A DNA stretch of 64,000 nt from Vicinamibacterales bacterium (GTDB lineage Bacteria > Acidobacteriota > Vicinamibacteria > Vicinamibacterales > UBA8438), in assembly GCA_965263055.1 (NCBI GenBank), contig OZ253581.1, positions 204,337-268,336 on the forward strand, given 5' to 3'. Each line of letters begins with the position of its first letter. The stretch's first letter is position 1. The position numbers were made by a program, and so were the translations under genes. The notes beneath the pieces are model-generated. The model did no database searches, was not told the DNA's origin, and was given only the letters and a program-made list of their open reading frames with translations. Of this stretch, positions 8,706 through 50,734 are shown one piece after another.

Positions 8706-8745
8706 TGTCAATGGCAACCGAAAACCGCACACTTCTGGGGAGGAC
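8706..8745 (+). mobile_element. Orphan IS21-family terminal repeat
   Basis: TGTCAATGGCAACCGAAAACCGCACACTTCTGG resembles IS21 ends; no ist genes follow. Confidence 0.55.
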
Positions 8746-10376
8746 GTCTCGGGCGGAGCGGACATTCTCCCGGTGATGCCCGTCGGGCGTTTCGGGCTGG
8801 ACGCAGGGAGCGGAGCGACCGGAGTCCTGGCCAAGACGCGCCGCGAAGCTGCGGAGCCGGCGGTCACGTTGCGACTCCCTCACGCTGTTCGTCCGACGCT
8901 GTCCTCAGCCAGTGCTGATGCTCCCGCATCCGGTAGCTGTTGCCCCGTCCGCTGGAGAAGTCGTGGGGCAGGACGTGTTCGCCCGGCTGCCACGGTTTCC
9001 GACGCGATTAGCTAGTAACCTGTTGATACCATGTGCTTTACGGTATTCTCCGCCGGCGGTTTCCCTCGTTGCATCCCCCGTTCAGCATCGGATTCCAGCG
9101 GACGACAGGCACCCTCCCGGGCCGGCGGTGCGCGTTCTCCGGCCTGAGAATCGGCACCCTGATGCCCAAAACCGGCCGCCGGCAGTAGCGCGGCGATGAA
9201 CTTCCGGAGGTATTGACGCCCCTATATGTCAAGACAAGCGTTTAGGCTGCCTGCGTGACGTGTCTGCGCATGCGGAAGTCTGCCATAACACGCTGGTAGA
9301 TTTCACGGGCGAGGAAGCGTTTGAGGCAGCGGATGATCTCGCGTCTGGTCCGGCCGCCAGCCGTCCGGCGGGCGACGTAGTCGACCGTCGGCTGGTGGAG
9401 TCGCATGCGGACGACGACCGTGCGATGGAGGGCGGCGTTCGCTTGTCGGTGCCCGCCCCGATAGAGACGATGCCGGCCGGTCGTCATCCCGGACGAAGCC
9501 GGGATCGGACAGGCCCCGCACAGCTTCGCAAAGGCGGCTTCTGAGCGAATCCGGTCGGGGTTGTCGCCGAAGATGATCAGCATCTGGGCGGCCGTGTGGG
9601 CGCCGACACCGAAGCCCTCCAAGAGCGTGGGCGCCGCCTCGGTCGTGAGGCGGGTGAGGTGCTGGTCGTGCGTCGCGATTTCCTCAGCCAGGGCAAGCCA
9701 GCGACGGGCAAGCGCCCGGAGGGTGTGCTTGGCGGCTGCGGTGGGCGTGTCGAGCGGGCCCGATCGGAGGGCGGCGCAGCGCGTGAGCAGACGGTGATCG
9801 GTGAGGGCGTGGAGGGCTTCTCGCAGGTGGGGTGGCGCATTCACGACGATCTGCTTCAGCGTGACCATCGCCGCGGTGCGTGCTTTCCCGGCCGTATCCC
9901 GCGCGATCTTGAGCTGCCGGATCATCTCGACGACACCGTCTGTTTGGCGTCAAGTACTTCTGCCGCTCAACGACAACTATTCTTGCCGGCTCGGACGGGT
10001 GCTCCCTGGGACCACGCACGCGGGTGGCCGGACGGGTGGCCCCGCTGGCGTTCAGGCCGTTCGCTGGGCGTTGCTGCGGGTTCTGAAGAAGCAGAAGACC
10101 AAACGGAGTGAACGTCCGCTTGGGGACGTTCACGTAGTGCGGTAGCCGAGCGCGCGGCTACCGAGGGATCGGCTGCTGGCCACTACGCGAGGAGCGGTGT
10201 GCCCGCCGAGGACGGCTGGACGGATCGTCGTCGGGGCCCGTGCCTGTATCCGTTGACGTTCGCCGGCGGCGTGGCGGGTCATGGCCGGGATGGAGATGAC
10301 GCGCGAAAGAGCCTGCGGGAAGATGTGCGCCGTGAACGTCGCCGCCGAAGCGGTGATCGATTCCGGAGGGAAACGC

Positions 10377-11198
10377 TCAGGAGGTCGCAGGTCGGCGACG
10401 CCGCGGCAGCAACGGACCTGGTGGTCGTCCACGAGGCGCGGGCGGTGGTGACGGTGGCGGCGACGTCGGCCGCGACGGGTCCGTTCGAAAGCTCGGCACG
10501 TCGAACTCGAGCAGCACCGAGTGGTGCACCAGGCGGTCGATCGCCGCGGCGGTGGCCATCTGGTCGCGGAAGATCCGGTCCCACTGGCTGAAGACCAGGT
10601 TGCTGGTCACCATCACCGAGCGGCGCTCGTAGCGCTCGGCGAGCAGCGTGAACAACACCTCGGCTTCGTCGGGACTCTGCTGCACGTAGCCCAGATCGTC
10701 GAGCAGAATCGCCTCAAAGAGGTCGAGCTTGCGGAGTGCGCGGGGCAGGTCGAGGTCGCGTTTGGCGGCGAGCATTTCCTGGACCAGGGCGTAGGCCGGC
10801 ACGCACAACACGCTGTGACCGGCCTCGACCAGGGCGTGCGCGACGGCGCTCAGCGCATGGCTCTTGCCGACACCCGGCAGACCGAAGGCGAGCACGTTGG
10901 TCGCTGTCTCGAGAAACGCCCCGGTGGCCAGCGTCCTCAACTGCTGCACGACCGGCGCCGGCAGCCTTCCGGTGTCGAGCGTCTCGAACGTCTTGCCGGG
11001 CGGCAGACGCGAGGTCCGTCGCAGCCGGGCAATCCGGCGCTGGCGTCGCGCCTCGGCTTCGGCCTCGAACACTTCCAGCAGCACCGGCAGCGTGTCGTAG
11101 TGTCCGGCCTGCGTCAGTCGCGGGACGAGCTCCTCGGCCGCCGTCGTCAGATTGAACTGTGTCAGCAGCGTCGTCACCTGCTCGCTCGGCACCGTCAT
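10377..11198 (-). CDS. istB: IS21 helper ATPase IstB
   Basis: GLPGVGKSH Walker A, LLDDLGY, AERYERRSVMVTSNL, IDRLVHH; ATGA overlap with istA. Confidence 0.95.
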   Translation of the reverse strand: MTVPSEQVTTLLTQFNLTTAAEELVPRLTQAGHYDTLPVLLEVFEAEAEARRQRRIARLRRTSRLPPGKTFETLDTGRLPAPVVQQLRTLATGAFLETATNVLAFGLPGVGKSHALSAVAHALVEAGHSVLCVPAYALVQEMLAAKRDLDLPRALRKLDLFEAILLDDLGYVQQSPDEAEVLFTLLAERYERRSVMVTSNLVFSQWDRIFRDQMATAAAIDRLVHHSVLLEFDVPSFRTDPSRPTSPPPSPPPAPRGRPPGPLLPRRRRPATS

Positions 11199-12682
11199 CC
11201 GCGCAGACCTCCGGTCAACAGCGCGTCGTACCGCGCCAGATCCGGGCGCGGTATGTGCACCACCGGGACGGTCGGGACTGGCGGCCGCACCTCGGCCTGG
11301 ACGCTGGCGTAGTCGCACGTGTCGCCGGCGTCGAGTCGAGCGCGAAGCGTCGCCTCGACCTGACGCTCGCTGGTCGTGGCGGCCAGGTGCAGCAGCCGCA
11401 CATACTCGACGTCGGCCCGCTCGCCATGCGTCCGGCCTAGCGCGTCGTACACCGCGCGGAACGTCAGCGACGGGAACAGCTCCTCCCGGAAGCGATACCG
11501 TGCAAAGGCACCCGGCTTGCGGACCAAGCTCGCGATGATGTGGCGATAGTCGATCCGGTGGTCCGCCGCACCCCGCAGCCGCGGCATCGTGCACAGCACC
11601 CGGCCGCCGTAGAGAACCTCGACCGTCGACGGATGCTGCCGCGCCTCGACCGTGTGGCCGATCAACCGCGACGGCACCGAGTAGATCCGGCTGCCGATCC
11701 GAATCGTGCTCCACTTGCGCACCCGGCACTGGAACGTCGTGTACTCGGGGATGCGAGCCGTCGGCAACGGCTGCAGATACAAACGCTCCTCGGCCAACCG
11801 TGCCGCCGCCGGCCTATTCCGCTCCTCGTCGAGGACCGCCCGCACGAAGCGCAGGTACGCCGACTCGTCCGCGAAATCTCTGTCGCCCCGCAGCAGCAAC
11901 GCTTGCTCGATGGCCGTCTTCGTCCGGAAGTGTGCCTGCTCGGCCACGCCGTTCTCGTGCGGTTTCCCCGGCTGGATCCGCGACGAGCGCAGCCCGTAGT
12001 GGTCCATCACCTGCTGAAACCGCGCCGTCAGCTGGCGCCCACCGCTACGCTTCAGCTCGTGCGTCGCCGCCGACAGGTTGTCGTGTCGCAGCACTGCCGG
12101 GACCGCGCCCAGCATCCACAACGCGCCCTGCAGGCCCGACACCAACGCCTCGAACGTCTCGCTCAGCGCCAGCCCCACATACGTCCACTTGCTGTAGCTC
12201 AGCACCCACTCGAACAGCAGATGCGGGAACGCCACGCCCCGTATCGTCACGCCCAGGTCGCTCGCGTCGGTGAAGTCGAACGCCGCTTCCCGACCCGGAA
12301 CCGCCACCTGCTCGAAGTACACCTCGCGGTCCGGGCCGTACTGCACCCGCCAATCGCGGACCCGCCGCTGTAGCGTCCGTAGCTGCCCCGCCTGAAAGCG
12401 ACCCGGATGCCGTCGGCACAGCACTTTGAACAGCGTCAGCGCCTGCAGCCGGCCGTCGGTATCGGCCACCAGCTGCGGCACGACCTCCGACTGCCACACA
12501 TCGGCGAACGGGTCCTCCCGCGTCCGCCACGTCCGCGGCGCCTTCGCCGTCGACGGCAACGCCCCGCGCTGCCACGTGCGCGCCGTCCGCTCGCTCATCC
12601 CGGCCGCCGCCGCCGCTGCCGCCAATGTCTTTCCGGACATCCGTTTCTCGCGCAATCGCCGAACCTGTGCATTCGTGACCAA
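11195..12682 (-). CDS. istA: IS21 transposase IstA
   Basis: WRTREDPFADVW, PGREAAFDFT, HDNLSAA, PHENGVAE; TTG start after GGAGG. Confidence 0.95.
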   Translation of the reverse strand: MVTNAQVRRLREKRMSGKTLAAAAAAAGMSERTARTWQRGALPSTAKAPRTWRTREDPFADVWQSEVVPQLVADTDGRLQALTLFKVLCRRHPGRFQAGQLRTLQRRVRDWRVQYGPDREVYFEQVAVPGREAAFDFTDASDLGVTIRGVAFPHLLFEWVLSYSKWTYVGLALSETFEALVSGLQGALWMLGAVPAVLRHDNLSAATHELKRSGGRQLTARFQQVMDHYGLRSSRIQPGKPHENGVAEQAHFRTKTAIEQALLLRGDRDFADESAYLRFVRAVLDEERNRPAAARLAEERLYLQPLPTARIPEYTTFQCRVRKWSTIRIGSRIYSVPSRLIGHTVEARQHPSTVEVLYGGRVLCTMPRLRGAADHRIDYRHIIASLVRKPGAFARYRFREELFPSLTFRAVYDALGRTHGERADVEYVRLLHLAATTSERQVEATLRARLDAGDTCDYASVQAEVRPPVPTVPVVHIPRPDLARYDALLTGGLRG

Positions 12683-33832: not shown

Positions 33833-36800
33833 CTACCAGCCCAACGTGCCCCGGCCGACGGCTCCGTTGCTTGCGCCCCCCAGCAGCGGACTCTCGCGGC
33901 GCTGCGCGTCGATGCCCAGCTCGAACGTCAGGTTCTCCGGCTTCAGCACCCCGAGACCGTAGCCGAGCCGGTAGTCCCGCCCGTGCTCGGACGTGCTGAA
34001 GCCGACCCGCGGCGTCCCGACAAAACGCCTGCCCATCGGCAGCCCGTAGCCGACCTCGCCATCGAGGCGGTTGCCCGACGCGACGCCGCCGGACGCCAGC
34101 CCCGCCATCGTCTGCCGGCCCCACAGCGCCTGGGCGCCGCTCGTCGCCTGCCCGCCCCACGACGGCGCCACCCGCGCCATAAAGCCCAGCGGCGTCGACG
34201 GCGTCGGGTTGTAGCTCAGCGACAGCGCCATGCCCCGCTCGCGGAACCCCTCGGCCTGGTGCAGCACCAGCGTCCGCACGCGCACGTCCACCGCCAGCCC
34301 GGACCCCGCATCCGACACGATCAGGCCCAGGCCAACGTCCATGCCGGCGCCGGTCTCGGCGTCCCCGCCGTCGTGCCGCAGCCCCACCTCGACGCTTGGC
34401 TTGAGCGACAGCCGGCCGGCGAGCGTGTAGGCGCGCGAGCCTTCGAGCCCCGTCCGGAAGCGGGTCACCGCCGTGTCGGTCGCCTTCAGGCGCCCCGCCG
34501 CGCCGTCGACGCCGTCGATCGACGTGCCGACCCACAACGCATCGGCCTTGAACGCCAGCGCGAAGCCGCCCGCACCGCCAGCGACCAGCTCGCCCCGCGT
34601 CCCCGCCGCCGCCATCGCCATCGACAGGCCCGACTCCAGGGCCGGACCGCCCTGCGGCGTCAGCAGCAGCCCGCCCGACCCGTAGCCGGCCACGCCCCAC
34701 ACCGTGACGCGGTCGGTCGCCTTGTAGCCGAGCCACGGGTACAGGCCCGTCACCGACGAGGCCACCTGGCCGCCGGCGGACCCCGTGTACTCGCCCAGGC
34801 CCCGGCTGTGCGACAGCGACAGGCCCGTCACCAGCGGCCCCGTCGCGTAGTCGGCCCCGACCATCGTCGTGCGCACGTCGCCGCCCAACGACAGCGCGCC
34901 CTCGCGCCCGGAGAAGCGCGACCGCGCCCCGCGGCTCCAGAACGAAAGGATGCCGCCGTGGCCCGTCTCGCGACCCAGCTCGAAGGCCGAGCCGGTCAGC
35001 ACGTCGCCGCCGCCGAGGCCCATCCGTGCGAGTCCGCCGCCATTGAACTGGCTGTCCGGGCGGGACCCGCCGCCCAGCGGGCCGGCGACCATGCCCATCG
35101 GACCCGACGCCGCGGCCAGGCGCCCGTCGCCGGCCAGCCCCGACATCCCGAGCGGCGCCGTCCCGGTCGCCGACGCGCCGGACAAAGAACCGCCGGCGCC
35201 CGCACCCATCGGCCCCGCGCCGGCCACCCCGCCGAGCCGGCGCAGGAAGCTGAGCGCGATGTCGCGCTCCATGCCGCGCCGCAGCTCCCGGCCCGCGAAC
35301 CGGCCCCGGAAGCCCGGCGCGCGCGGCGCCGCCAGCCGCTCTTCCACGTGCTCCACCACATGCACCGCCGCCGTCCGCCCGAACCGCGCCAGCAGCGCCC
35401 GCGGCATCGAATCGTGGTTCGCGATCGTCCCGGTGGCCTCGCCGTCGGCCAACCGTCCCCCCGAGGGGTTGGACAGCCGCAGCGTCAGCGTCTCCTCGCC
35501 CTCGTCGTGGGCGTCGTCGAACACCGCCACCTCGATCGTCTTCGACGACTCGCCCGCCCGGAACTTCAGCGTCCCGCTCGCCGCCCGGTAGTCGTCGCCC
35601 GCGTGCGCGCTGCCGTCCGCCGTCGCGTAGTCCACCGTCAACGCGGCGCTCGCCGCGCGGCTGAGCGTGACGGCGAAGGCCAGCAGGGCGCCTGAGTTCT
35701 CGTCCACCCGCGCATCGGCCACCGCGATGCCCACCGAGCCGGCCACCGTCGCCGACAGCGCATGCGACAGCGGCCTGCCGTCGTCGGTGCAGATCGCCCC
35801 GCTCGCGTCGCAGTCGGTCGTCTCCGGCAGCCGGACGGTCAGCGCCTCGTGCGAGGCCGGCTCGATGGTGATCTTCCACAGGTCGCGGCGGCCGTCGACC
35901 CGTCGCGCCCTGGTGACGTCGCCGCCCGTCACCGTGAACGACGCGTCGCGCACCGTCTTGTAGCTGATACTGATCCCGTCGCTGAACGCCACGCGGAAGC
36001 TGAACGACCCCTGGCCGCGGTGCTCTGCCGGCATGCCCTCGAAGCTCGCCGTCAGCGGCTCCGGCGCCGCGGCGACGGCATCGGTGGCCGCGCTGGTGAG
36101 GCGCTCCTCGTGGCCGGCGTCGTCGGTGAAGCTGACCCGGACCTTCAGCCGCTCGCCTTCGTCGGCGTCCACCGCCGTGTAGGTGGAGCCGGTCGCCCCC
36201 TGAATATCGGTGTCCGTCCGGATCCACTGGTAGGCGAAGCCCGCGGTGTCCAGCCCGTCGGCGTCGGAGATGCCCGACGTCGAGGCGGTCAGCGCCTCCC
36301 CGACCTGCGGCGTCCCGCTGATCGTCGGCGCGCCCGCCGCCGCCGTGTTGCTCTCCGGCTCGTCCGCCGGGCCGGCCACCGTCGCCGAGGGACTGTTGCT
36401 CAGCCGCCGGCCGTGCTCCCCCGTGGTGCAGATCGCCCCGGAGACCTCGCACGCGCGCCCCGCCGGCAGCGTGATCGCCACGTCTCCGTCCGAGTCGGGC
36501 GCGACCGTGATCTCCCACCGGTCGTAGCGCCCGTCCACCCCGCGCACCTCGGTCACGGCGCCCCCGCTCACCGTGAACGCATCGTCGCGCAGCGCCTGGT
36601 AGTCGATGCCGATGTCCTCGCTGAAGGCGACATGGAAGCGGAACGCGCGCTCGCCGTCATGCGCCCCCGGCACCCTCTCGAAGCTCGCCGTCAGCGCCTG
36701 GTCCTCCTCCGTCTGGCTCTCCGGACCCGGGCCGTTCACGATGGCCGACGCCCCGGTCGACAGGGCTCGGCCGTCCGCGGTGCAGACCGCCCCGTCCGCC

Positions 36801-39800
36801 GCGCACTCCGCCGCCGGGGCCAGCGTGATCGACAGCGCCTCGCGGGTGTCCGGCGTGACCGTGATCGCCCACACGCCGGTCTCCCCGTCGACGCGGGCCG
36901 CGCCGGTCACGGCGCCGCCCTCCACCGTCAGGACGCGCGTCCGCATGGCCTCGGGCGTCACCGAGACCGCCTCGCTGAACACGAGGCGGACGGTGAACGC
37001 GGTCTCGCCGTCGTGCGCCTCCGGCAGCCCCTCGAACGCCGCCGTCAGCGGCTCCGCCGCCCCGCCGTGTGACGAACCCTCGGCGGCGGTGACCGTGGCC
37101 GTCCCCGCGCGCAGCTCCGGCCGGACCTCGTACAGGTGTTCTTTGTCCGGATTGTCCGGAGCCAGGGGATACGGCATCACCTCGACGGTGACGGCGCTGT
37201 TCGGCTCGGGCCCGCCGCCGTCGTTCACGGTGTCCAGTACCACCGGTATCGTCGCGTTCCCGTCCCCGAAATGGACGTTCTCGTACCAGTATCCTTCGGG
37301 GCTGCGCCCTTCCGGCGGGAGCATGTCGCCAGTCTCGCTGATCCGCAGGATAACCATCAGCCGGCCGTGGGGCTGGTCGCGCGACAGCGCGAAGCGCAGC
37401 GGTTCTCCTTCCTCCACCGAGCGGGTGTCCGCTTCGATCCAGACCGTTTGCCGACCGACCGCCGTCCCCAGGGCCGTGACCACCGCGCTGGTGCCGCCGT
37501 CCTTGTCCACCGAGCGCACCTGGAACTCGTAGGTCGTCCACGCCGTCAACTCCTTCAGCAGGACCGAGTTGTAGTTTCTGATCTCGCTCGTCCCGGGAAG
37601 CATCGTCTGGTTCACGGTGGTCCAGTCCACCGTCCAGGTGCTCGCGTCGCGGACGCGGTACCGGTACTGGTGGCGATCCACCAGCTCGTGCGATGCGTCG
37701 TCGGGGTTTCTCCACCAGCCCAAGCGAATCTCGCCGGGCAGCAAGGGCTCCGCATTCACGTCCTGCGGCGGGGGGAGCGCGGCGTTCGTCGCGGGCGGGC
37801 CCGCTGCAACGGTGGTGGCGGCGTCCGAGGGGTCCGACCAGTCGCTCGGCGTCTCGCCGTTGAGTGCCTGCACCCGCACCTGGTACTCCGTGTTCGCCGT
37901 CAGCCCGGTGATGGTCGTGGCGGTGCCCGTGCCCGTGTGCATCCAGTTGGTCCAGGTGCCGCTCGTCCCCTGGCGGTACTCCACGGCGTAGCCGGTGATG
38001 TCGGGGCCCCCGTTGAGCCCCGGCTTCGTCCAGCTCGCGTCCAGGCTGTCGGTCGCGCCCGAGACCGCCGCCAGCGTCGGCTTCGCCGGTTTGTCCGGCT
38101 GCTCGTCCTCGTCCGTGACGGTGATCTCCACGTCGATGGTGGCGCTCGCCGTGCCGTCCGACGCCCTCACCGTCACCGAGTAGGACGATTGCTCCTCGTG
38201 GTCGTAGGTCACTCCCGTCTTGGTCCGGATCTGGCCCGACGTGGAGACGATGTCGAACAACGCCACGTCCGTGCCCTCCAGGGTGTATGTCAGCGTGTCG
38301 CCGGGGTCGACGTCGGTCGCCGTCACCGCCGTGCCAACGTCGACGCCCGCGGCGCTGTTCTCGGCCACCCCGCGCGTCGGCGCCGTCTCGGAGAACACCG
38401 GGGCGTTGTTGGAGGCCGAATTCGTGGGCACCGCGACCGAGGGGTCCGACCAGGCGCTCGGCGTCTCGCCGTTGAGCGCCTGCACCCGCACTTGATACTC
38501 CGTGCTCGCCGTCAGCCCGGTGATCGTCGTCGTGGTCCCGGTGCCGCTGTGCGTGACGTTCTCCCAGTCGCCGCTCGTGCCCTCGCGGTACTCCACGGTG
38601 TAACCGATGAGCTCCGGGCCGCCGTTCCGCCCCGGCTCGGTCCAGGTCACGTCCAGGCTGTCGGTCGTGCCCGAGGTCGCCGACACCGTCGGCTTCGCCG
38701 GTGTGTCCGGCTGCTCGTCCTCGTCCGTGACGGTGATCTCCACGTCGATGGTGGCGCTCGCCGTGCCGTCCGACGCCCTCACCGTCACCGAGTAGGACGA
38801 TTGCTCCTCGTGGTCGTAGGTCACTCCCGTCTTGGTCCGGATCTGGCCCGACGTGGCGACGATGTCGAACGACGCCACGTCCGTGCCCTCCAGGGTGTAT
38901 GTCAGCGTGTCGCCGGGGTCGGCGTCGGTCGCCGTCACCGCCGTGCCAACGTCGACGCCCGCGGCGCTGTTCTCGGCCACCCCGCGCGTCGGCGCCGTCT
39001 CGGAGAACACCGGGGCGTTGTTGGCGGCCGCATTGGTGGGCACCGCGACCGAGGGGTCCGACCAGGCGCTCGGCGTCTCGCCGTTGAGCGCCTGCACCCG
39101 CACCTGGTGCTCCGTGTTCGCCGTCAGCCCGGTGATCATCGTCGTGGTCCCGGTGCCGCTGTGCGTCCAGTTCACCCACGTGACGCTCGTGACCACGCGG
39201 TACTGCACGCCGTAGCCGATGATGGCCGGGCCGCCGTTCAGCCCCGGCTCGGTCCAGGTCACGTCCAGGCTGTCGGTCGTGCCCGAGGTCGCCATCACCG
39301 TCGGCGTCGCCGGTATGTCCGGCTGCTCGTTCGCGTCCATCACCGTCACCGTGATCGTCTGGGTCGCCGTCTGCTCCCGGTCGCCCGTGCCGCTGGTCGC
39401 CTGCACCACCACCAGATAGGCGTTGTCGGTGTTCGCGTCCTGCGGGTCCTCGTAGTTGGGCGCCGCCTGGAACGTCAGCACGCCCGACGTCGAGCCGATG
39501 GAGAACAGCGCCTGGTCCGCGCCGCCGCTGAGCGCGTAGTCGGTGATGGCGTCGCCCGTGTCGCTGTCCGACGCCACCACCGTGCCCACCGCCGTCTGGT
39601 TCTCCGCCGGGTTGAACATCGCCGCCGAGGTGAACGAGGGCGCCGCGTTGGCGTCCGTCTCGCCGCTGCCCGAAGCGGACCAGCCGCCCGTGCCCTCGGC
39701 GTTCGTCGCCCGCACCTGCACCTGGTAGCTCGTGTCCTCCAGAAGCCCCGTGAGGATCGCCGTGAGGGCGGTGCCGATGTGGCTCCCGTCACTCCACGGC

Positions 39801-42800
39801 TCGCTCGCGCCCGCCCGGTACTGCACGTCGTAGTCCGTGATCTCCGGGCCGGCGTTGTCCGGCGCCGACCAGCTCACGTTCAGGCTCGTCACCGACGCCG
39901 GCGACACCGACGGCGCATCCGGCGCGGCCGGCGCCTCGGTGTCGTCGTCCATCACCGTCACCGTGATGGTCTGGGTCCCTGTCTGCTCCCGGTCGCCCGT
40001 GCCGCTGGTCGCCTGCACCACCACCAGATAGGCGTTGTCGGTGTTCGCGTCCTGCGGGTCCTCGTAGTTGGGCGCCGCCTGGAACGTCAGCACGCCCGAC
40101 GTCGAGCCGATAGAGAACAGCGCCTGGTCCGCGCCACCGCTGAGCGCGTAGTCGGTGATGTCATCGCCCGTGTCGTCGTCCGACGCCACCACCGTGCCCA
40201 CCGTCGTCTGGTTCTCCGCCGGGGTGAACGTGTCTGACGAGGTAAACGAGGGCGCCATGTTCGCGTCCGTCGCGTCGCTGCCCGAATCGGACCAGTCGCT
40301 CGTGCCCTCGTCGTTCGTCGCCCGCACCTGCACGTCGTAGGACGTGTTCTCCTGCAGGCTTCCGATCGTCGTCGACCGAGCCGTGATCGTCGTGTTGGTC
40401 ACCTCGACCCACGCGCCCGGCGGCAAGGTCGTCCGGTAGCGGTAGTCGTAGTCCGTGATCTCCGGGCCGGCGTTGTCCGGCGCCGACCAGCTCACGTTCA
40501 GGCTCGTCACCGACGCCGGCGACACCGACGGCGCATCCGGCGCAGCCGGCGCCTCGGTGTTATCGTCCCTCACCGTCACCGTGATCGCCTGGGTCGCGGT
40601 CTTCGCCCGCTCCCCCGCGCCGCTGCTCGCCTGCACCGTCAGCGCGTAGGTGTTGTCGGCGCCCTGGTCCTGCGGGGCCTCGAAGTTCGGCGCATCGTCG
40701 AACGTCAGCGCCCCCGACGTCGCCCCGATCGAGAAGAACCCCTGGTCCGCGCCGCCGCTGAGCGCGTAGCCGGTGATGTCGTCGCCCGCGTCGTCGTCCT
40801 CCGCCTCCACCGTGCCCACCGCCGTCTGGTTCTCCGCCGCGCCGAACGTCGCATCCGAGGTGAACGCCGGCGCCGCATTCGGTTCGTCGTTGTCGGTGAT
40901 GGTGCCCGTCGCCGTCGCGTCCGAAATCTCCGCGTTCCTCGGGTTCGACAGCGTCACCGTGAAGGTCTCGTTCGGCTCGTCGGTCGGGTCGTCGGTCGTC
41001 GACACCGTGATCGTCCCCGTCGTCTCACCCGCGGCGATGGTCAGCGTGTCGCTCGCCGCGGTGAAGTCCGTACCCGAGGTGGCTGTGTCGCCGGTCTTGA
41101 CCGACGTCGCCCAGTCCACCATCACGTCCCTGCCGCTCGCCGGCAACAGGCGCACCGTGAACTCAAGGGCGTCTCCCTCGAATGCGGAGGCGTCGTCCAC
41201 GCTCACCGATGGCTCAGGGTCGTTGTCCCGGATCGTCATCCTCCCGGTGGAGGAATCTGGCGCCAGTATTGCATTCCTCGGTTGCGACAGCGTCACCGTG
41301 AAGGTCTCTCTGTCCTCGTCGAGCGCGTCGTCGGCCACCACGTCATGCATCGTGAAGAGCAGCTCCAATCCCATTCCGGGTCTGAAGGTCACCGACCCGG
41401 TCGCCGCCGACAGGTCAACGAAGTCCGCCTCCTCCGCCGTGTCGTCCGGCTTTATCGAGGCCGTCCAGACGATTGTCACCACCTTTTCGCTCTCCGCCGA
41501 AATCGTCAACCTCGGACTCATCGTTCCGTGCTCTACCGCCGTGGCGTCACCGATGGACACCGTCGGCATCTTGTCGTCGTCCTTGATCGTGCCCTCCGCG
41601 GTTGTGGTCGCCGCAAGCGCCTCGTTCGCCTTGACCGACACCGTCACCGTGAAGGTCTCGTCGTCCTCGTCCCTGGTGTCATCCGCCGTCACCACCGTGA
41701 ACGTTGCCGTCATCTGGCCCTCCATGATCGTCTCCGTCCCGGTCGCCGCCGACAGGTCAACGAAGTCCGCCTCCTCCGCCGTGTCGCCGATCTCAATCGA
41801 TGCCGTCCAGGTCGCCGTCAAGTTCTCCCTGGCCGCTTCCGACAGCGTCACCGTGAAGGTCACGTTTCCGCCCTCGTCCCCCGAGGCATCCTCGACGCTC
41901 AGCGTCGGCAGGTCGTTGGTGCTCGCCGTCGAGGCGTCCGACCAGGCGCCCGTGCCCTCGTCGTTCGTCGCCCGCACCTGCACGTCGTAGGACGTGTTCT
42001 CCTGCAGGCTCCCGATCGTCGCCGACGGACCCGTGATCGTCGTGTCCGCCACCTCCACCCACGCGCCCTGCGGCGAGCTCGTCCGGTAGCGGTAGTCGTA
42101 GTCCGTGATGGCCGGGCCCGCGTTGTCCGGCGCCAGCCAGGTCACGCTCAGGCTCGTCACCGAGGCGCCCGACACCGACGGCGCAGCCGGCGCGTGCGGC
42201 GCCTCGTGGTCGTCGTCGGTCACCGTCACCGTGATCGCCAGGGTCACCGTCCGCTCCCGGTCCCCCGCGCCGCTGGTCGCCTGCACCTCCAACTTGTAGG
42301 TGTTGTCGGCGCCCTGGTCCTGCGCGTCCTCGAAGTTCGGCGCATCGTCGAACGTCAGCACCCCCACCGGCGGCCCGGCGGGGGCGCGGAAGATCGAGAA
42401 GAACCCCGCATCCGCGCCGCCGCTGATCGCGTAGCCCTGGATGCCGTCGTCCGGGTCATAGTCCTCTGCCTCCACCGTGCCCACCGCCGTCTGGTTCTCC
42501 GCCGCGTCGAACGTCGGCGACGAGGTGAACGCCGGCGCGGCGTTCGCGTCCGTCCTGCCGCTGCCCGCAGAGGACCAGCCGCTCGTGCCCTCGTCGTTCG
42601 TCGCCCGCACCTGCACGAAGTGGTACGCGTCCTCCTGCAGGCCCCCGATCGTCGCGCTCAACGCCGTGATCGTCGTGTCGGCCACCTCCGACCACTCGCC
42701 CACCGGCGAGTCCATCCGCTGGAAGTAGCGGTAGTCGTAGTCCGTGATGGCCGGGCCCGCGTTGTCCGGCGCCGACCAGGTCACGTTCAGGCTCGTCGCC

Positions 42801-45800
42801 GACGCCGCCGACACGTACGGCGCATCCGGCGTATCCGGCGCCTCGGTGTCGTCGTCCGTGACGTTGATGGTTACCGCGATGGTGTCGGTGCCGTCGGCAC
42901 TGTCGTCGGCCTTCACCGTCACCGAGTAGGAATTCTGCGGCGCCTCGTGGTCGTAGGTCACCCCTGTCACGGTCCGGATCTGGCCCGACGTCTCGACGAT
43001 GGTGAACGAACCCGCGTCCGTCCCCTCCAGGCTGTAGGTCAGCGTGTCGCCGCTGTCGGCGTCGGTCGCCGTCACCGCCGCGCCGACATCGGTGCCTGCC
43101 GGGCTGTTCTCCGGCACCGTGCGCGTCGCCATCGTCTCGGCGAACAGCGGGGCGTTGTTGTCGGGCGACCACAGATGCAGCGTCACCAGTGTCTCGGACG
43201 ACCAGTCCAGGCCGGTGCTGGACCATAGGTAGGACTTGCTTCCAGGGAAATAGGTCGCATCGCTGAACGCGAACGAGGTGGCGCCGACACGCAGGACTAG
43301 CTTGTCTCTGGCGGCGTCGGTGAGGGCGGCGTTCAGATTGAAGCCAAGTGCCATCGAATCTGAGACGTGCACCGAAGTGATCGTGTATCTCGTGGTTCCG
43401 TAGTCGAATTCGGTGTCGGACAAGCCGCCTATCGTGTTAAGGAATCCATCCCCGTCGCCCAACTCCCCCACCGTGACGACCCCGCACCAGAGGTCGCCGG
43501 TGTTCAGCGTGCAGGTCGAGGGCGCCGCGTTGACGGCAAAGACCTCCAGCGGCAGGCCGGAGGATTTCTCCAAGGCGTAGCCCCGATGCTCCGAGGGCAG
43601 CCCCGGCAGCGTCCCGATGTCCGCCGTGACGGCGAAGACCCCGATCCGGGTCACCGACACCGAGTCGCTGTGGACCATGCCGGCGGGAATCGTGAGCGTG
43701 GTGGCCCCGCCGTCGATCTCGCCGTTGACGACGCTTACGGGCAACGTGAGGGCGAACGGCGCGGCCGTGGGAGCGACCGCCCTGAACCGGCCCGGCTCCG
43801 CCGGCTCCAGGGATACCGCCACCGGCAGGGGAGAGCCTGGGTTGCCGTCCAGACGGAGGATCTCCAGCGACGTCAGGCCGGAGAAAACGCCCGCCTGCAG
43901 GTTGCTCAGGGAGTTCTCGCTCAGGTCGAGGGTCTCGAGCGCGATGAGGTCGTCGAAAACGCCCGCCGGCAGGTTGCTCAGGGAGTTCTCGCCCAGGAAG
44001 AGGGACTCGAGCGCGGTGAGGCCGTCGAAAACGCCCGCCTGCAGGTTGCTCAGGGAGTTGTTGCCCAGGAAGAGGGACTCGAGCGCGGTGAGGCCGTCGA
44101 AAACGCCCGCCGGCAGGTTGCTCAGGGAGTTGTCGTTCAGGAGGAGGGTCTCGAGCGCGGTGAGGGCGTCGAAAACGCCCGCCGGCAGGTTGCCCAGGGA
44201 GTTGTAGCTCAGGAGGAGGGTCTCGAGCGCGGTGAGGGCGTCGAAAACGCCCGCCGGCAGGTCGTTCAGGAAGTTGTTGCTCAGGTAGAGGGTCTCGAGC
44301 GCGATGAGGTCGTCGAAAACGCCCGCCGGCAGGTTGTTCAGGGAGTTGCCGTCCAGGGAGAGTTCCGTGAGCGCGGTGAGGGTGTCGAAAACGCCCGCCT
44401 GCAGGTCGCTCAGGGAGTTGTTGCCCAGGTAGAGGGTCTCGAGCGCGGTGAGGGTGTCGAAAACGCTCGCCGGCAGGTTGCTCAGGGAGTTGTCGTTCAG
44501 GTTGAGGGTCTCGAGCGCGGTCCGTCGAAGTCGCCCGCCTGCAGCGACGAGATGCCCGTGGAATCCAAATCCAATCCCGTGATTGCCGCCAGATGCGCAG
44601 CCGTCACCCCGCCGCAGGTGCTCACCCCCGACACTTGGGCCACGATGGCGTCGCGCACCTGCTCGGTGCGGTCGCAGAACGGCGCGGCGGCAAAGACCTC
44701 CAGCGGCAGGCCGGAGGATTTCTCCAAGGCGTAGCCCCGATGCCCCGAGGGCAGCCCCGGCAGCGTCCCGATGTCCGCCGTGACGGCGAAGCCCCCGATC
44801 CGGGTCACCGACACCGAGTCGCTGTGGACCATGCCGGCGGGAATCGTGAGCGTGGTGGCCCCGCCGTCGATCTCGCCGTTGACGACGCTTACGGGCAACG
44901 TGAGGGCGAACGGCGCGGCCGTGGGAGCGACCGCCCTGAACCGGCCCGGCTCCGCCGGCTCCAGGGATACCGCAACCGGCAGGGGAGAGACTGGGTTGCC
45001 GTCCAGACGAAGGGTCTCCAGCGACGTCAGGCCGGAGAAAACGCCCGCCGGCAGGCTGCTCAGGGAGTTGTTGTTCAGGGAGAGTTCCGTGAGCGCGGTG
45101 AGGCCGTCGAAAACGACCGCCGGCAGGTCGCTCAGGGAGTTGTTGCCCAGGTAGAGGGTCTCGAGCGCGATGAGGTCGTCGAAAACGCCCGCCGGCAGGT
45201 TGCTCAGGGAGTTGTTGTTCAGGTAGAGGGTCTGTAGCGCGGTGAGGCCGTCGAAAACGCTCGCCGGCAGGTTGCTCAGGGAGTTGCTGTCCAGGGAGAG
45301 TTCCGTGAGCGCGGTGAGGGTGTCGAAAACGCCCGCCGGCAGGTTGCTCAGGGAGTTGCTGCCCAGGTCGAGGGCCTGTAGCGCGGTGAGGCCGTCGAAA
45401 ACGCCCGCCCGCAGGTCGCTCAGGGAGTTGTTGTTCAGGTAGAGGAACTGTAGCGCGGTGAGGGCGTCGAAAACGACCGCCGGCAGGTCGCTCAGGGAGT
45501 TGCTGCGCAGGTCGAGGTACGTGAGCGCGGTGAGGCCGGAGAAGTCGCCCGCCTGCAGCGACGTGATGCCGGCAAATCCCAAATCCAAAGACGTGATTGC
45601 CGCCAGATGCGCAGTCGTCACCCCGCCGCAGGTGCTCACCCCCGACACTTGGGCCACGATGGCGTCGCGCACCTGCTCGGTGCGGTCGCAGAACGGCCCG
45701 GCGGCAAAGACCTCCAGCGGCAGGCCGGAGGATTTCTCCAAGGCGTAGCCCCGATGCCCCGAGGGCAACCCCGGCAGCGTCCCGATGTCCGCCGTGACGG

Positions 45801-46935
45801 CGAAGCCCCCGATCCGGGTCACCGACACCGAGTCGCTGTGGACCATGCCGGCGGGAATCGTGAGCGTGGTGGCCCCGCCGTCGATCTCGCCGTTGACGAC
45901 GCTTACGGGCAACGTGAGGGCGAACGGCGCGGCCGTGGGAGCGACCGCCCTGAACCGGCCCGGCTCCGCCGGCTCCAGGGATACCGCAACCGGCAGGGGA
46001 GAGACTGGGTTGCCGTCCAGACGAAGGCTCTCCAGCGGCGTCAGGCCGGAGAAAACGCCCGCCGGCAGGCTGCTCAGGGAGTTGTTGTTCAGGGAGAGTT
46101 CCGTGAGCGCGGTCAGGCCGGAGAAAACGCCCGCCGGCAGGTCGCTCAGGGAGTTGTTGCCCAAGGAGAGGGTCTCGAGCGCGGTGAGGCCGTCGAAAAC
46201 GCTCGCCGGCAGGTTGCTCAGGGAGTTGTTGCCCAAGGAGAGGGTCTCGAGCGCGGTGAGGGCGTCGAAAACGCTCGCCGGCAGGTCGCTCAGGGAGTTG
46301 CTGGTCAGGTTGAGGGTCTCGAGCGCGGTGAGGGCGTCGAAAACGCTCGCCGGCAGGTTGCTCAGGGAGTTGTTGCCCAGGTAGAGGGTCTGTAGTGCGG
46401 TGAGGGCGTCGAAAACGCTCGCCGGCAGGTTGCGCAGGGAGTTGTTGCCCAGGTCGAGGGTCTCGAGCGCGGTGAGGCCGTCGAAAACGACCGCCGGCAG
46501 GTTGCGCAGGGAGTTGCTGCCCAGGTCGAGGTACGTGAGCGCGGTGAGGCCGGAGAAGTCGCCCGCCTGCAGCGACGTGAAGCCGGCAGATCCCAAACCC
46601 AAATACGTGATTGCCGCCAGATGCGCAGCCGTCACGTTGGCGCAGGCGCTGACCCCGGGCACCGCCGCCACGATGGCGTCGCGCACCTGCTCGGTGCGGT
46701 CGCAGACCGGCGGGGTCTGCGCCTCGGCGGTCGAGGGGAGGGCGAGCGCGCCGAAGAGCGCGAGGCACGCCGCGGCGGCCAGCCCCCGGGCGAAGCCAAC
46801 GAGCCCGCGGCCCCCGGCGGCGGATGCGGTCTGAGAAGAGGGACGGCCGCCCCGGCGGGGCGGCAGGCGGTCAGGCGGGGATGGCGGGCGGTTGTGCTCC
46901 CGCGCCCGCAAGGCGACCGCTCCGATTGTTCTCAT
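33833..46935 (-). CDS. Giant (~4370 aa) surface adhesin: 3 LRR modules, cadherin, FN3, Calx-beta and Ig-like repeats, C-terminal autotransporter-like barrel; frameshifted at ~44521
   Basis: Extended signal peptide (GGAAGGGG RBS, cleavage AEA-Q); 24-aa LRRs; ENS..VG..VTATDAD..YDHE cadherins; SLxVxW..Y.VQVRA FN3; LAFAVTL..VDYATADG..DDAHDEGEE Calx-beta; ends in W; 4-bp deletion relative to sister repeats. Confidence 0.9.
38090..39140. repeat. Near-identical 612-bp-period cadherin+FN3 tandem duplication (another pair at ~39340-40230)
   Basis: CTCGTCCTCGTCCGTGACGGTGATCTCCACG at ~38102 and ~38714; second pair at ~39360 and ~39972. Confidence 0.85.
43535..46620. repeat. Three near-identical LRR-module duplications built from 72-bp cassettes (7, 7 and 9 full repeats)
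   Basis: Recurrent GAAAACGCCCGCCGGCAGGTTGCTCAGGGAGTTG; ~300-bp linker domain repeated at ~43540, ~44690 and ~45705. Confidence 0.9.
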
Positions 46936-47098
46936 CGTCGTCCCCTTCCGATTTCAGCCGCGCTCCATGACACCGTCGTCTCGAAATTCGTCGAGGTGTC
47001 GAACAACACTGACCGCCGAGCGTCCGTCCGGAACGTCGAACGCGCCCACTCACCAAGGGCCCGGCCTTGACCATTGGCATGTGCTCTCCGTCCACTGA

Positions 47099-47132
47099 TT
47101 AGCTCGCGATAGTTGTAGTTATCGCGAGCTAA
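47099..47132 (+). other. lox-like recombination site L (13-8-13)
   Basis: TTAGCTCGCGATA-GTTGTAGT-TATCGCGAGCTAA, perfect 13-bp inverted arms. Confidence 0.92.
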
Positions 47133-47167
47133 CGGTCTGGCTGTATGTCATTTGAACGGTGGTACTT

Positions 47168-48151
47168 ATGCAGTTTTCACCCCAAGACGTGTCCGAGCGT
47201 CGCGACCCGGCCACTCAGAAGTCACACAACGGCGAGCGCCTTGCCACCTATCTGGAGGACGCCCACGGCGCCCTCAGCGGGAATACCGTGCGGGCGGTGA
47301 GCGCGGACCTGGAACGGTTCACGGCGTGGTGCGCGGAGCGGGGGCTTTCGCCGCTGCCCGCGCGCGCGGCCACGGTGGTGGCGTACATCGAGGCGATGGC
47401 GAGCGGCCGTGCGCCGGCCACCGTGCGCCGCTACGTCTCGAGCGTCGCCACCGTGCACAAGGCGGCCGGGGAACACAGCCCGCTCGAGCACATAACCGTG
47501 CGGCGGGCCCTAAAACGCATGCATCGGCAGAGGGGGTGCCGGCAGACGCAGGTGCAGGGGCTGACCTGGGCGCTCCGCCGGCGCCTCGTGGAGGCCGCCG
47601 GCCACCGACTGATCGACGTGCGGAACCGCGCGATCCTGGCTGTGGCCTACGACGCCATGCTCCGCCGCTCCGAGCTGGTCGCGCTGCACGTCGTTGATGT
47701 GACGACAGAACGGGACGGATCGGCCTCGCTCCTCGTGCGCCGCGCGAAGACCGATCCGGAGGGCGGCGGCGCGATGCTGTACCTGCACCGCGACAGCGTG
47801 ACGCTGCTACGCGGGTGGCTGAGCGCGAGCGGGATCGCCAGCGGGCCGCTCTTCCGTTCCCTCCGCAAGGACGGCACGGTGGGCGGGAGGCTCCATGCGA
47901 GCCAGGTGCCGCGCCTCTACAAGGCGATGGCCGAACGCGCCGGGCTGCCGGCGGAGATGGTGCGGCGCCTCTCGGGGCACAGTCCCCGGGTGGGCGCGGC
48001 GCAGGACATGATCGCCTCGGGGATCGGGATCCCGGCGATCATGCAGGCCGGGCGCTGGAAGAGCGCCGCGATGGTGCAGCGCTACGGCGAGCGGCTCCTC
48101 GCCAAGCGGAATGGCGCCGCCCAGCTGGCACGGCTTCAGAAACGCAGATGA
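47168..48151 (+). CDS. Cre-like tyrosine site-specific recombinase
   Basis: N-terminal SAM-like domain (SGNTVRAV..FTAWC, APATVRRYVSSV); catalytic RRSE, AKTD, HSPR and Cre-type Trp/Tyr in AGRWKSAAMVQRY; ATG 47168 (alternative GTG 47159). Confidence 0.9.
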   Translation: MQFSPQDVSERRDPATQKSHNGERLATYLEDAHGALSGNTVRAVSADLERFTAWCAERGLSPLPARAATVVAYIEAMASGRAPATVRRYVSSVATVHKAAGEHSPLEHITVRRALKRMHRQRGCRQTQVQGLTWALRRRLVEAAGHRLIDVRNRAILAVAYDAMLRRSELVALHVVDVTTERDGSASLLVRRAKTDPEGGGAMLYLHRDSVTLLRGWLSASGIASGPLFRSLRKDGTVGGRLHASQVPRLYKAMAERAGLPAEMVRRLSGHSPRVGAAQDMIASGIGIPAIMQAGRWKSAAMVQRYGERLLAKRNGAAQLARLQKRR

Positions 48152-48171
48152 GCCCCGAAGACCCCGCCGGG

Positions 48172-48200
48172 TTGCCTTGGGTCTCCGGTCACGATATTGT
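48172..48200 (+). promoter_or_regulatory. Putative sigma70 promoter inside the invertible segment, pointing outward through site R
   Basis: TTGCCT (48172-48177), 17-bp spacer, TATTGT (48195-48200). Confidence 0.55.
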
Positions 48201-48206
48201 TTGCCG

Positions 48207-48240
48207 ATAGCTCGCGATAACTACAACTATCGCGAGCTAT
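48207..48240 (-). other. lox-like recombination site R (13-8-13), inverted relative to L
   Basis: ATAGCTCGCGATA-ACTACAAC-TATCGCGAGCTAT; spacer is the exact reverse complement of the L spacer. Confidence 0.92.
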
Positions 48241-48301
48241 CTGGAACATTAAGCGATCTGTTGTGAGCGTATTGTGACTGCACGGGCGAGTTTCATGTCC
48301 C

Positions 48302-50734
48302 GTGCGTGACTTTTCGTCCGAAGCGCGCTATCCTCCACTCTCCCCTGCGGCGCGGCAGCACCCACCCGGGCGCCTTCGGCCGGCTTCGGGCACCCCGTCG
48401 GCGGGAGTGGGAGCATTGAACGGTCGAGACCCGACCAGGCTGTCCGATGAGCGCATCTCCCGCCTGAGCGCGGCGATTCTCCGCATCAGCCAGAGCCTCG
48501 AGCTGGCCACCGTGCTGGAGGAGGTCGTCGAGAGCGCCCGCGCGCTGACCGGCGCCCGCTCCGGCGTGATCACGACGCTCGACGAGCGGGGAGCGATCGA
48601 GGACTTCGTCACCTCCGGCCTTCCTCCCGAGGCGTGCCGGCAGATGGTCGCGTGGCCCGACGGGGCGCGACTCTTCGCACACCTGCGGGACCAGCCGACG
48701 CCGCTCCGGGTGGCGGACCTGCCCGGCTACCTGCGATCGCTCGGCCTCTCCCCGAACCCCTTGAGCTCGAAGACGCTGCAGGGGACCCCGCTGCGCTATC
48801 GGGGCGAGCATCTCGGCAACTTCTTTCTCAGCGACAAGGACGACGGCGAGGCGTTCACGGGTGAGGACGAGGAGATCCTGGTGCTGTTCGCCTCGCAGGC
48901 GGCGACGGCCGTGGCCAACGCGCGCACGTACCGCGACGTCGAGCGGGCGCGGGCCGGCCTCGCGGCGCTCATCGAGACCTCGCCGGTCGGCGTCGCGGTG
49001 TTCGACGCCGCCACCGGCCATCCGGTCTCGTTCAACCGCGAGGCGCGGCGCATCGTCGAGGGGCTCCGCACCCCCGGCCGCCCACCGGAGCAGCTGCTCG
49101 AGGTGATCACGTGCCGGCACGCGGACGGGCGGGAGTTCTCCCTCGAGGCGCTGCCCCTGGCCCGGCAGCTCGAGGGTGCCACGACGATGCGGGCCGAGGA
49201 GGTCGAGCTGTCGGTGCCCGACGGCCGGAGCGTCCGGACGCTCCTCAACGTCACGCCCATCCGTGCGGAGGGCGGAGAGGTCGTCTCGGTCGTCGTCACC
49301 CTGCAGGACCTGGCGCCGCTCGAGGAGCTGGAGCGGCAGCGGGCGGAGTTCCTCGGGATGGTGAGCCACGAGCTCCGCGCCCCCCTGACCTCGATCAAGG
49401 GCTCGACGGCGACCGTGCTGGGCGCCGTGCCGGTCCCGCCCCAGGCCGAGATGCTCCAGTTCTTCCGCATCATCGACGGGCAGGCCGACCACATGCGCGG
49501 CCTGATCGCGAACCTCCTGGACGCGGGGAGCATCAAGGCGGGCACACTCACGGTGGCGCCCGAGCCCTCGAACGTCGCCACGCTGGTGGACCGGGCCCGC
49601 AACACCTTCTTGAGCGGCGGAGGCCGGCACGCCGTCCTCCTCGACCTCCCGCCGGACCTGCCCCGGGCGATGGCCGACCGCGAGCGCATCGTGCAGGTGC
49701 TGAACAACCTCTTCGCGAACGCGGCCCGCCACGCGCCGCCCTCGTCCCCGATCCGGGTCGAGGCGGCGTGCGCGGGCCGCGACATCGTGCTCTCGGTTTC
49801 GGACGAGGGCCGGGGGATCCTGCCCGACCGGCTCCCGCATCTCTTCCGCAAGCGCGCCGGCCCCGCCGGAGGCACCGGGCTCGGCCTCGCCATCTGCAAG
49901 GGCCTCGTGGAGGCGCACGGCGGCCGTATCCGCGCCGAGAGCGGGGGGACGGGCCAGGGCGCGCGCTTCACCTTCACCCTTCCCGTGGCCGGGGCGGCCG
50001 TTCCCGAGGCGGCCCCGCCCAGCGGCCGGCCGCGCCCGCCCGGGGAGCGGGCGGAGAAGACACGCGTCCTCGTGGTGGACGACGACCCGCAGACGCTCCG
50101 CTACGTGCGGGACGTCCTCTCCCAGGCGGGCTACGCCCCGCTCGTCACGGGCGATCCGGACGGACTCCCCAGCGTCATCCGCGCCGAACAGCCCCGCCTC
50201 GTCCTCCTCGACCTCATGCTCCCCGGCACGGACGGGATCGAACTGATGAAGCGGGTCCCGGAACTCGCCGATCTCCCGGTCATCTTCATCTCCGGCTACG
50301 GCCGGGACGAGACGATCGCCAAGGCGCTCGAGAGCGGCGCGGCCGACTACATCGTCAAGCCGTTCTCGCCGACCGAACTCGTGGCGCGGGTCCAGGCGGC
50401 GCTCCGGAGCCGGGCCGCGCCCGAGACCGTCGTGCACGGGGACCTCGCCGTCGAGTACGGCCGGCGCCGGGTGAGCGTGGCCGGCCGCGCGGTCGCGCTC
50501 ACGGCCACGGAATTCGAACTGCTGCGCGTCCTCTCGGTCAACGGGGGACGGGTAGTGACGACGGCGGCGCTCCTCCGCCAGGTGTGGGGGCGCCGGGGCG
50601 TGGACGACACCGATCGCGTGCGCACCGTCGTGAAGAAGCTCCGGGCAAAGCTCGGCGACGACGCGGCCAAGCCGACCTACATCTTTACCGAGCACGGGGT
50701 CGGCTACCGCCTGGCGACCCCGAGCGGGGCGTAG
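48302..50734 (+). CDS. Hybrid sensor kinase-response regulator (GAF-PAS-HisKA-HATPase-REC-OmpR wHTH)
   Basis: SHELRAPLTSIKG, NLFANAARH, GTGLGLAI, VVDDD, LLDLMLP, DYIVKPF, LTATEFELL, HGVGYR; true start may be TTG 48416. Confidence 0.92.
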   Translation: MRDFSSEARYPPLSPAARQHPPGRLRPASGTPSAGVGALNGRDPTRLSDERISRLSAAILRISQSLELATVLEEVVESARALTGARSGVITTLDERGAIEDFVTSGLPPEACRQMVAWPDGARLFAHLRDQPTPLRVADLPGYLRSLGLSPNPLSSKTLQGTPLRYRGEHLGNFFLSDKDDGEAFTGEDEEILVLFASQAATAVANARTYRDVERARAGLAALIETSPVGVAVFDAATGHPVSFNREARRIVEGLRTPGRPPEQLLEVITCRHADGREFSLEALPLARQLEGATTMRAEEVELSVPDGRSVRTLLNVTPIRAEGGEVVSVVVTLQDLAPLEELERQRAEFLGMVSHELRAPLTSIKGSTATVLGAVPVPPQAEMLQFFRIIDGQADHMRGLIANLLDAGSIKAGTLTVAPEPSNVATLVDRARNTFLSGGGRHAVLLDLPPDLPRAMADRERIVQVLNNLFANAARHAPPSSPIRVEAACAGRDIVLSVSDEGRGILPDRLPHLFRKRAGPAGGTGLGLAICKGLVEAHGGRIRAESGGTGQGARFTFTLPVAGAAVPEAAPPSGRPRPPGERAEKTRVLVVDDDPQTLRYVRDVLSQAGYAPLVTGDPDGLPSVIRAEQPRLVLLDLMLPGTDGIELMKRVPELADLPVIFISGYGRDETIAKALESGAADYIVKPFSPTELVARVQAALRSRAAPETVVHGDLAVEYGRRRVSVAGRAVALTATEFELLRVLSVNGGRVVTTAALLRQVWGRRGVDDTDRVRTVVKKLRAKLGDDAAKPTYIFTEHGVGYRLATPSGA

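Follow-up and report, generated by a model that had tools for sequence, protein, structure and literature searches.

Inversion switches for surface structures are well known in bacteria. In the H segment of Salmonella (Hin/hix), which underlies flagellar phase variation, an invertible stretch of ~1 kb contains both the invertase gene and a promoter that reads outward into a surface-structure gene; the invertase, Hin, belongs to the serine recombinases and requires an enhancer and Fis. In the fimS element of E. coli, the tyrosine recombinases FimB and FimE invert a promoter element and switch an adhesive structure ON or OFF, with a strong bias toward one state, and the fim recombinase genes lie outside the element, which is 314 bp long and has short inverted repeats. 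In Clostridioides difficile, inversions of promoters or leaders by the tyrosine recombinase RecV are reported to control surface proteins and cmrRST signalling (10.1101/690230, PMC7446863). Here we analyse a 1.1-kb segment (the cassette, 47100 to 48239) in a 64,000-nucleotide stretch of DNA labelled as a Vicinamibacterales bacterium (the window; assembly GCA_965263055.1, contig OZ253581.1, positions 204,337 to 268,336; unless a locus is named, coordinates are those of the window). Reading of the sequence and an inverted-repeat search showed that the cassette consists of a recombinase gene and two inverted lox-like sites that bound it. It occupies the gap between two diverging genes (46935 to 48416), with a giant gene on the left and a kinase-regulator gene on the right.

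With moderate confidence, we read the cassette as a self-contained inversion switch that acts as an ON/OFF gate on expression of the giant surface protein; the kinase-regulator would be a companion that is transcribed independently. In the proposed mechanism, the Cre-like recombinase would recombine the two inverted sites around its own gene, and the segment would flip. In the present orientation, which is the majority state in relatives, the recombinase gene and a promoter-like sequence read away from the giant gene, and this putative adhesin would be OFF. Once the segment is inverted, the outward promoter and the transcription unit of the recombinase would read across the site into the promoter-poor leader of the adhesin gene, which would then be ON. 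The kinase-regulator would rely on elements outside the cassette, namely a promoter of its own and repeats that are probably autoregulatory, and the orientation would at most modulate it, not switch it off. That the outward promoter is active and that orientation gates adhesin transcription is what we infer from the sequence comparisons described below.

The Cre-like recombinase and its paired sites

The recombinase gene (47168 to 48151, plus strand) starts with an ATG at 47168, ends with a stop codon at 48149 to 48151 and encodes a protein of 327 residues; an in-frame GTG is located at 47159, ahead of the ATG. In Pfam, the protein matched tyrosine-recombinase domains only, namely Phage_integrase (PF00589, E of 3.8e-16) and Phage_int_SAM_1 (PF02899, E of 1.2e-05), and it lacks the serine recombinase (resolvase) domain of the Hin-type invertases. 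Among all solved structures, 17 of its top 18 matches were Cre or the engineered derivative Tre (best E of 2.7e-25), and XerD was a far weaker match (E of 1.8e-4). Residues R166, K194, H271, R274, W297 and Y306 align opposite the catalytic residues of Cre. The protein is apparently an active Cre-like tyrosine recombinase with an intact catalytic set. The inner segment ahead of its start codon (47143 to 47167, plus strand) contains GTATGTCATTTG with a -10-like TATGTC, followed by a ribosome-binding site (RBS), GGTGG, and is conserved in the alignment. This segment is a possible recombinase promoter, the -35 of which would sit in the inner arm of the site. An Rfam scan of 46000 to 49000 at E ≤ 0.1 gave no match.

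The recombinase-proximal site L (47100 to 47131) and the recombinase-distal site R (48208 to 48239) are exact reverse complements of each other, forming a perfect inverted pair (32 of 32 nucleotides) in an extended repeat of 36 nucleotides with 97% complementarity. Each site has two inverted arms of 12 nucleotides (TAGCTCGCGATA and TATCGCGAGCTA) around an 8-nucleotide spacer, that is, a 12-8-12 layout (13-8-13 for site L). The spacer is GTTGTAGT at site L and its reverse complement, ACTACAAC, at site R, and the two sites are thus inverted. The genome, assembled as one contig of 4.35 Mb, contains a second cassette 2.4 Mb away (copy 2), the recombinase of which is 98% identical. Copy 2 has the same arms, and its spacers differ from those of the window cassette (copy 1) at one central position.

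Inverted site pairs with paired spacers were found in 63 of 63 cassettes analysed. These comprise both cassettes of this genome, 13 of 13 in a first set of relatives (four of them accepted with a degenerate outer arm) and 48 of the 78 recombinase loci in a second set, which came from a scan of one genome per species; loci are referred to here by L numbers. Of the 48, 45 matched at 23 or more of 30 positions in an ungapped inverted-repeat search, and three more have an insertion inside the cassette. The remaining 30 loci, mostly from Proteobacteria, are truncated or at most ~59% identical, and in three of them a lone palindromic site precedes the gene. Across the cassettes the arms drift between subgroups and at least 12 kinds of spacer occur, and the spacers match within each pair. 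Mismatches within a pair were seen only at the outermost spacer position (copy 2, L043, L052, L063 and L073). The crossover region of Cre spans the central 6 bp of the spacer, and mismatches restricted to the outermost position are what would be expected if strand exchange here also requires identity in the central 6 bp. The co-variation argues that selection, or recombination itself, keeps each spacer pair matched.

Two variations in site layout were also observed. The spacers of L064 and L066 are 9 nucleotides long instead of 8 (ACTGGTAGT) and match within each pair. In the long cassettes of the distant subfamily (L027 to L039), an extra single lox-like arm (half-site) is present inside the cassette, ~115 nucleotides past the recombinase stop codon. 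This arm, which the short cassette of the window lacks, may serve for accessory binding.

Inversion in related loci

Comparison of two orthologous pairs of loci shows that this cassette family inverts in nature. In a blastn alignment of L084 with L065, both flanks matched on the opposite strand (531 to 9543 of L084 with 20960 to 11948 of L065 at 99.0%, and 11040 to 12577 with 8500 to 6981 at 98.6%), while the interior (10023 to 11074 with 9993 to 11044, 96.6%) matched on the same strand. The comparison of L071 with L070 gave the same picture, with reversed flanks and a direct interior at 92% identity. For each pair, the switch points fell within the lox-like sites. At the two flipped loci, the 3' end of the recombinase gene faces the leader and the open reading frame (ORF) with the signal peptide (an open frame of 1542 residues in L065), and the conserved kinase leader abuts the 5' end of the recombinase gene. 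The recombinase gene of L065 is broken after about eight codons by a 1.43-kb insertion (8560 to 9992), which would lock the flipped state. The window's own copy presumably inverts as well.

The giant surface-protein gene

The gene on the left (33833 to 46935, minus strand) encodes a giant secreted repeat protein, as judged from two ORFs (44497 to 46935 and 33833 to 46768), their translations and Pfam. The first frame has a signal-peptide-like N-terminus and leucine-rich repeats (LRRs), and the second contains more LRRs together with cadherin, FN3 and Calx-beta domains; the conserved C-terminal region was given no family assignment by Pfam. This domain content suggests the role of an adhesin. 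The most upstream ATG is at 46935, 164 nucleotides before site L, and leaves a leader of 46936 to 47099 (minus strand). In the flank alignment, the adhesin-side flanks shared no promoter-like element and were not conserved between subgroups.

We also considered a giant ORF that starts inside the cassette. Stop-to-stop frames do cross the proximal site in several loci, but the signal-peptide regions lie 100 to 400 nucleotides outside it, and this candidate was rejected. The adhesin paralogue beside copy 2 (L011, 12034 onward) and the giant gene of L036, from another genus, have a similar N-terminal extension before the signal peptide. The extension peptide is deleted in the window copy, which makes the true start codon of its giant gene uncertain.

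The outward promoter-like sequence at the distal end

A first-pass annotation of this DNA had pointed out a promoter-like motif, TTGCCT-N17-TATTGT, between the recombinase stop codon and site R. We located it as described, at 48172 to 48200 on the plus strand, with TTGCCT at 48172 to 48177, TATTGT at 48195 to 48200 and a 17-nucleotide spacer between them. The -10 hexamer ends 7 nucleotides ahead of the inner arm of site R, and the motif is also present in copy 2. It matches 4 + 4 = 8 of the 12 consensus positions. The window motif alone is not beyond chance, and it is the family comparison that appears to raise it above that level.

For this comparison, the best -35/-10 pair in the last 110 nucleotides up to the end of the distal site was scored in 59 cassettes. 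On the outward strand, 31 of the 59 scored 8 or more and 12 scored 9. A score of 8 was found in 6 of 59 on the inward strand, in 5 of 59 on the outward strand at the proximal end, and in 3% of 1180 random 110-nucleotide windows drawn from these loci. Because the cassettes share ancestry and some clusters are over-represented, these counts are descriptive and do not constitute a test. In the long cassettes, the best outward match usually lies 29 to 64 nucleotides before the distal site, and 2 of 12 reach a score of 9, compared with 0.4% of 480 random windows. Read-through of recombinase transcripts could add to any outward transcription. When the stretch from the recombinase stop codon to the distal site was folded in nine cassettes, eight showed no significant hairpin (z of -0.8 to +0.5), the ninth being L081 (z of -4.4). 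A terminator after the recombinase gene was therefore dropped from consideration, and read-through across the distal site is plausible. The suggestion, made in the first-pass annotation, that bound recombinase could repress the promoter at the edge of the lox-like site is geometrically plausible for this copy only, since the position at the site edge is not conserved.

Several observations weigh against a promoter-driven gate at this locus. A consensus promoter scan of 46500 to 48900 at a threshold of 9 of 12 found no site (0.1 expected in shuffled sequences). Neither the motif nor its position is kept across the relatives: the largest cluster (L040 to L057) has lost the TTGCCT-type -35 through a deletion of ~17 nucleotides, and the best match there has its -35 just before the site and a -10 made by the spacer itself. 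The best-conserved inner piece is GGTCACAA and not a -10 hexamer, and the most conserved inner motif, GGTCAC (48187 to 48192), overlaps the promoter-like motif of the window. Inversion may also be rare, as 46 of 48 related cassettes are in the window orientation or cannot be oriented by the kinase gene, and two are flipped. Logan contigs for 46700 to 48700 (four runs from four studies) end at the 32-nucleotide word common to both sites; these contigs are short, and only contigs resembling copy 2 bridge a site, in the reference orientation. Among them no joint with a change of strand and no loose end at the sites was listed, a result that speaks neither for nor against inversion of the window cassette. 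Finally, the two adhesin frames (an N-terminal ORF of 812 residues and the long second frame) meet near 44519, where the sequence is 4 nucleotides short of its own 72-nucleotide LRR unit. The adhesin frame is broken there (44497 to 44560); the output at this locus may be a real pseudogene, or the break may be a programmed shift or an assembly error.

The weakness of the motif and its shifting position would suit a different kind of switch, in which the cassette inverts without a functional outward promoter and acts through read-through from the recombinase promoter, or by joining and separating regulator motifs at site R. The absence of a terminator-like structure in eight of the nine folded cassettes is compatible with the former, and the latter would draw on GGTCACAA inside the cassette, which is the reverse complement of the TTGTGAC repeats outside site R. 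We nevertheless regard this explanation as unlikely, given that promoter-like sequences are enriched at this very end and on this strand across sub-families whose sequences cannot be aligned in this region.

The kinase-regulator and its own control region

The gene on the right (48416 to 50734, plus strand) encodes a hybrid sensor-regulator with GAF, PAS, HisKA, HATPase, receiver and OmpR-type winged-helix domains in Pfam. Its frame opens with a GTG at 48302, and the conserved RBS (48403 to 48415) and TTG start codon (together 48403 to 48418) place the start at 48416. An alignment of 20 kinase-side flanks revealed, in order outward from the distal site, direct repeats with an 11-bp period (TTGTGAG-N4-TTGTGAC, 48261 to 48278, plus strand), a promoter-like element with a consensus of at least 90% (GTGACT-N17-TATCCT, 48306 to 48334, plus strand), a variable GC-rich stretch, and the conserved RBS and TTG. 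The start of the kinase gene is thus probably at 48416, and a promoter of its own, outside the cassette, probably drives it, so that it should not depend on the cassette. Direct repeats with an 11-bp period are typical of OmpR/PhoB-type binding sites. The repeats at 48261 to 48278 are candidate binding sites for a winged-helix response regulator, and the kinase gene is likely autoregulated. When queried with the kinase, the genome yielded a single intact copy, that of the window, and elsewhere a remnant of another such kinase-regulator, split into two pieces (74% identity, G000:C1:1294460-1295101).

Motifs of the type TGTGA[CG] were concentrated at the same place in other loci. In the forward direction, 33 of 43 kinase-side flanks contained 49 of them, 47 of which lay at +20 to +40, compared with 3 of 43 adhesin-side flanks. 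An inverted copy was observed 20 to 30 nucleotides inside the distal site in 31 of 43 loci (48187 to 48192 in the window), and the motif also occurs inside the 5' coding region of the recombinase gene in 42 of 43 loci (~47220 in the window). These motifs may be regulator-binding sites that bracket site R.

According to the first-pass annotation, both flanking genes diverge from the cassette, and a single outward promoter drives the kinase gene at present and the adhesin gene after inversion, the two outputs being mutually exclusive. The divergent arrangement was borne out, and homologous cassettes do tend to keep the same neighbours, a check proposed with that annotation. In the close subfamily (cassettes of ~1.13 to 1.17 kb, recombinases 67 to 88% identical), a kinase homologue on the same strand directly adjoins the outer side of the distal site in 39 of 48 cassettes, as a long homologue in 33 (71 to 86% amino acid identity) and as a fragment in six; of the other nine, seven have no kinase homologue and two have it on the other side. 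A minus-strand ORF of at least 900 residues begins within 900 nucleotides of the proximal site in 30 of 48, or 36 of 48 when at least 450 residues are required, by a crude criterion that is sensitive to frameshifts. In the distant subfamily (~1.35 to 1.42 kb), 11 of 13 cassettes have a giant diverging ORF, while the region beyond the distal site holds a convergent LuxR-type (GerE) helix-turn-helix regulator in 7 of 13, a co-directional OmpR-type response regulator in one, and, in the remaining cassettes, transposases or other genes; the GAF domain of these convergent GAF-LuxR regulators was read from the sequence, Pfam giving GerE only. The giant surface protein is therefore the constant partner across the family, and the kinase is a partner in the close subfamily only.

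The conserved divergent neighbours, the outward promoter-like sequence and the lack of a strong hairpin after the recombinase gene would all accommodate such a two-output toggle. The evidence on the kinase side argues against it. The kinase gene has its own well-conserved promoter-like element, preceded by conserved direct repeats, outside the invertible segment. At copy 2, homology extends outward into the start of a giant-gene paralogue of 2145 residues on one side and into ~130 nucleotides of the kinase-side leader on the other, after which transposase genes replace the kinase; the cassette and the adhesin paralogue have been retained. The convergent regulators of the distant subfamily likewise speak against the kinase as a general output. 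What stands of the earlier proposal is the inversion unit and the tendency of its distal end to carry an outward promoter-like sequence, which faces the surface-protein gene in both flipped loci; the mutually exclusive part we consider improbable.

A bolder extension of the ON/OFF gate would give the kinase a role in the switching itself. The sensor-regulator of each module would bind the TTGTGAC-type motifs on either side of the distal site, inversion would take its direction or rate from an environmental signal, and the modules, up to eight per contig of a metagenome-assembled genome (MAG) in Longimicrobiales, would flip orthogonally, one for each giant gene. We put this forward as a long shot. 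If true, it would amount to signal-programmed phase variation of individual genes and to a natural library of Cre-like recombinases and their targets, with different arms and spacers.

Distribution and possible mobility of the module

The relatives of the cassette are labelled as Longimicrobiales (Gemmatimonadota), including a Candidatus Palauibacter MAG. Recombinase homologues with E ≤ 1e-20 were found in 7 of 60 genomes of relatives, six of them at 56 to 65% identity, with at most four matches per genome, and eight of the 78 loci in the one-genome-per-species scan were on one MAG contig. In metagenome contigs, 3 of 77 loci exceeded 70% identity, and none was near enough to be the window's own locus.

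MAGs labelled as Vicinamibacterales, Latescibacterota, Poriferihabitaceae, Pseudomonadales and Gammaproteobacteria also contained recombinase homologues at 56 to 86% identity (L045, L055/L056, L088, L089 and L094). In L045, L055/L056 and L094 the module is complete, including the neighbouring kinase gene, while L088 has no clear site pair and L089 has no adjacent kinase. Such occurrences suggest that the module was transferred horizontally within a shared habitat, or that contigs were binned in error. Insertions were noted in some copies: in L029, an ORF that looks like a Mutator/IS256 transposase, as read from its translation, separates the recombinase gene from the distal site, and the site pairs of L075 and L086 are 3 to 4 kb apart, with insertions inside the cassettes.

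The window cassette itself contains no transposase in Pfam, and the outer flanks of sites L and R differ, which means that there is no target-site duplication; the place between the same two gene families recurs in 39 of 48 loci. It does not fit the definition of an insertion sequence or transposon, which would bring a transposase, duplicate its target and sit at unrelated positions. A selfish or decaying mobile element, whose recombinase and terminal inverted repeats spread with or into the adhesin family and whose inversion has no regulatory role, might account for the multiple copies, the patchy occurrence, the insertion sequences in or beside several copies and the module in MAGs labelled as other phyla, but it is very improbable, as inverted sites cannot excise the segment, the orientation and the place between the same two gene families are conserved at 70 to 88% recombinase identity, the kinase-side leader is conserved beside the site, and the spacers co-vary within pairs.

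Comparison with known systems

Uncultured Longimicrobiales carry many copies of the module in each genome, every copy being paired with a giant LRR, cadherin, FN3 or Calx-beta protein and most of them with a sensor-regulator of their own. The arrangement suggests phase variation, gene by gene, of host- or surface-binding proteins, and we know of no such control in that phylum. The dozens of natural recombinase and site variants, with different arms and at least 12 spacers, are possible orthogonal tools for genome engineering. Within the portions of the literature returned by our search, we found no description of a Cre-like enzyme inside its own invertible segment with full lox-type sites. The main text of a broad inverton survey (PMC11602134) does not describe such a cassette either and makes no mention of Gemmatimonad or of tyrosine recombinase.

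Among the described systems, Cre/loxP of phage P1 is the one to which the enzyme and its sites are related. The recombinases are homologous, the six catalytic residues align, and both kinds of site have perfect inverted arms around an asymmetric 8-nucleotide spacer. The arrangement differs in that two inverted sites here bracket the recombinase gene, and that the unit lies in a bacterial chromosome between surface-protein and regulator genes. The distant proteobacterial homologues, with at most one palindromic site upstream of the gene, are nearer to the arrangement of P1.

In its layout, the cassette resembles Hin/hix, with the invertase gene within its own segment of ~1 kb, but the enzyme is a tyrosine recombinase and not a member of the Hin family. 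Compared with fimS, the recombinase gene lies inside the element rather than outside, and the element is 1.1 kb long with full lox-like sites. The proposed switch would share with the RecV system the inversion, by a tyrosine recombinase, of sequences that control surface proteins and signalling; however, a single distant recombinase serves many short switches there, whereas each module here has its own recombinase, and the signalling gene seems to have its own promoter.

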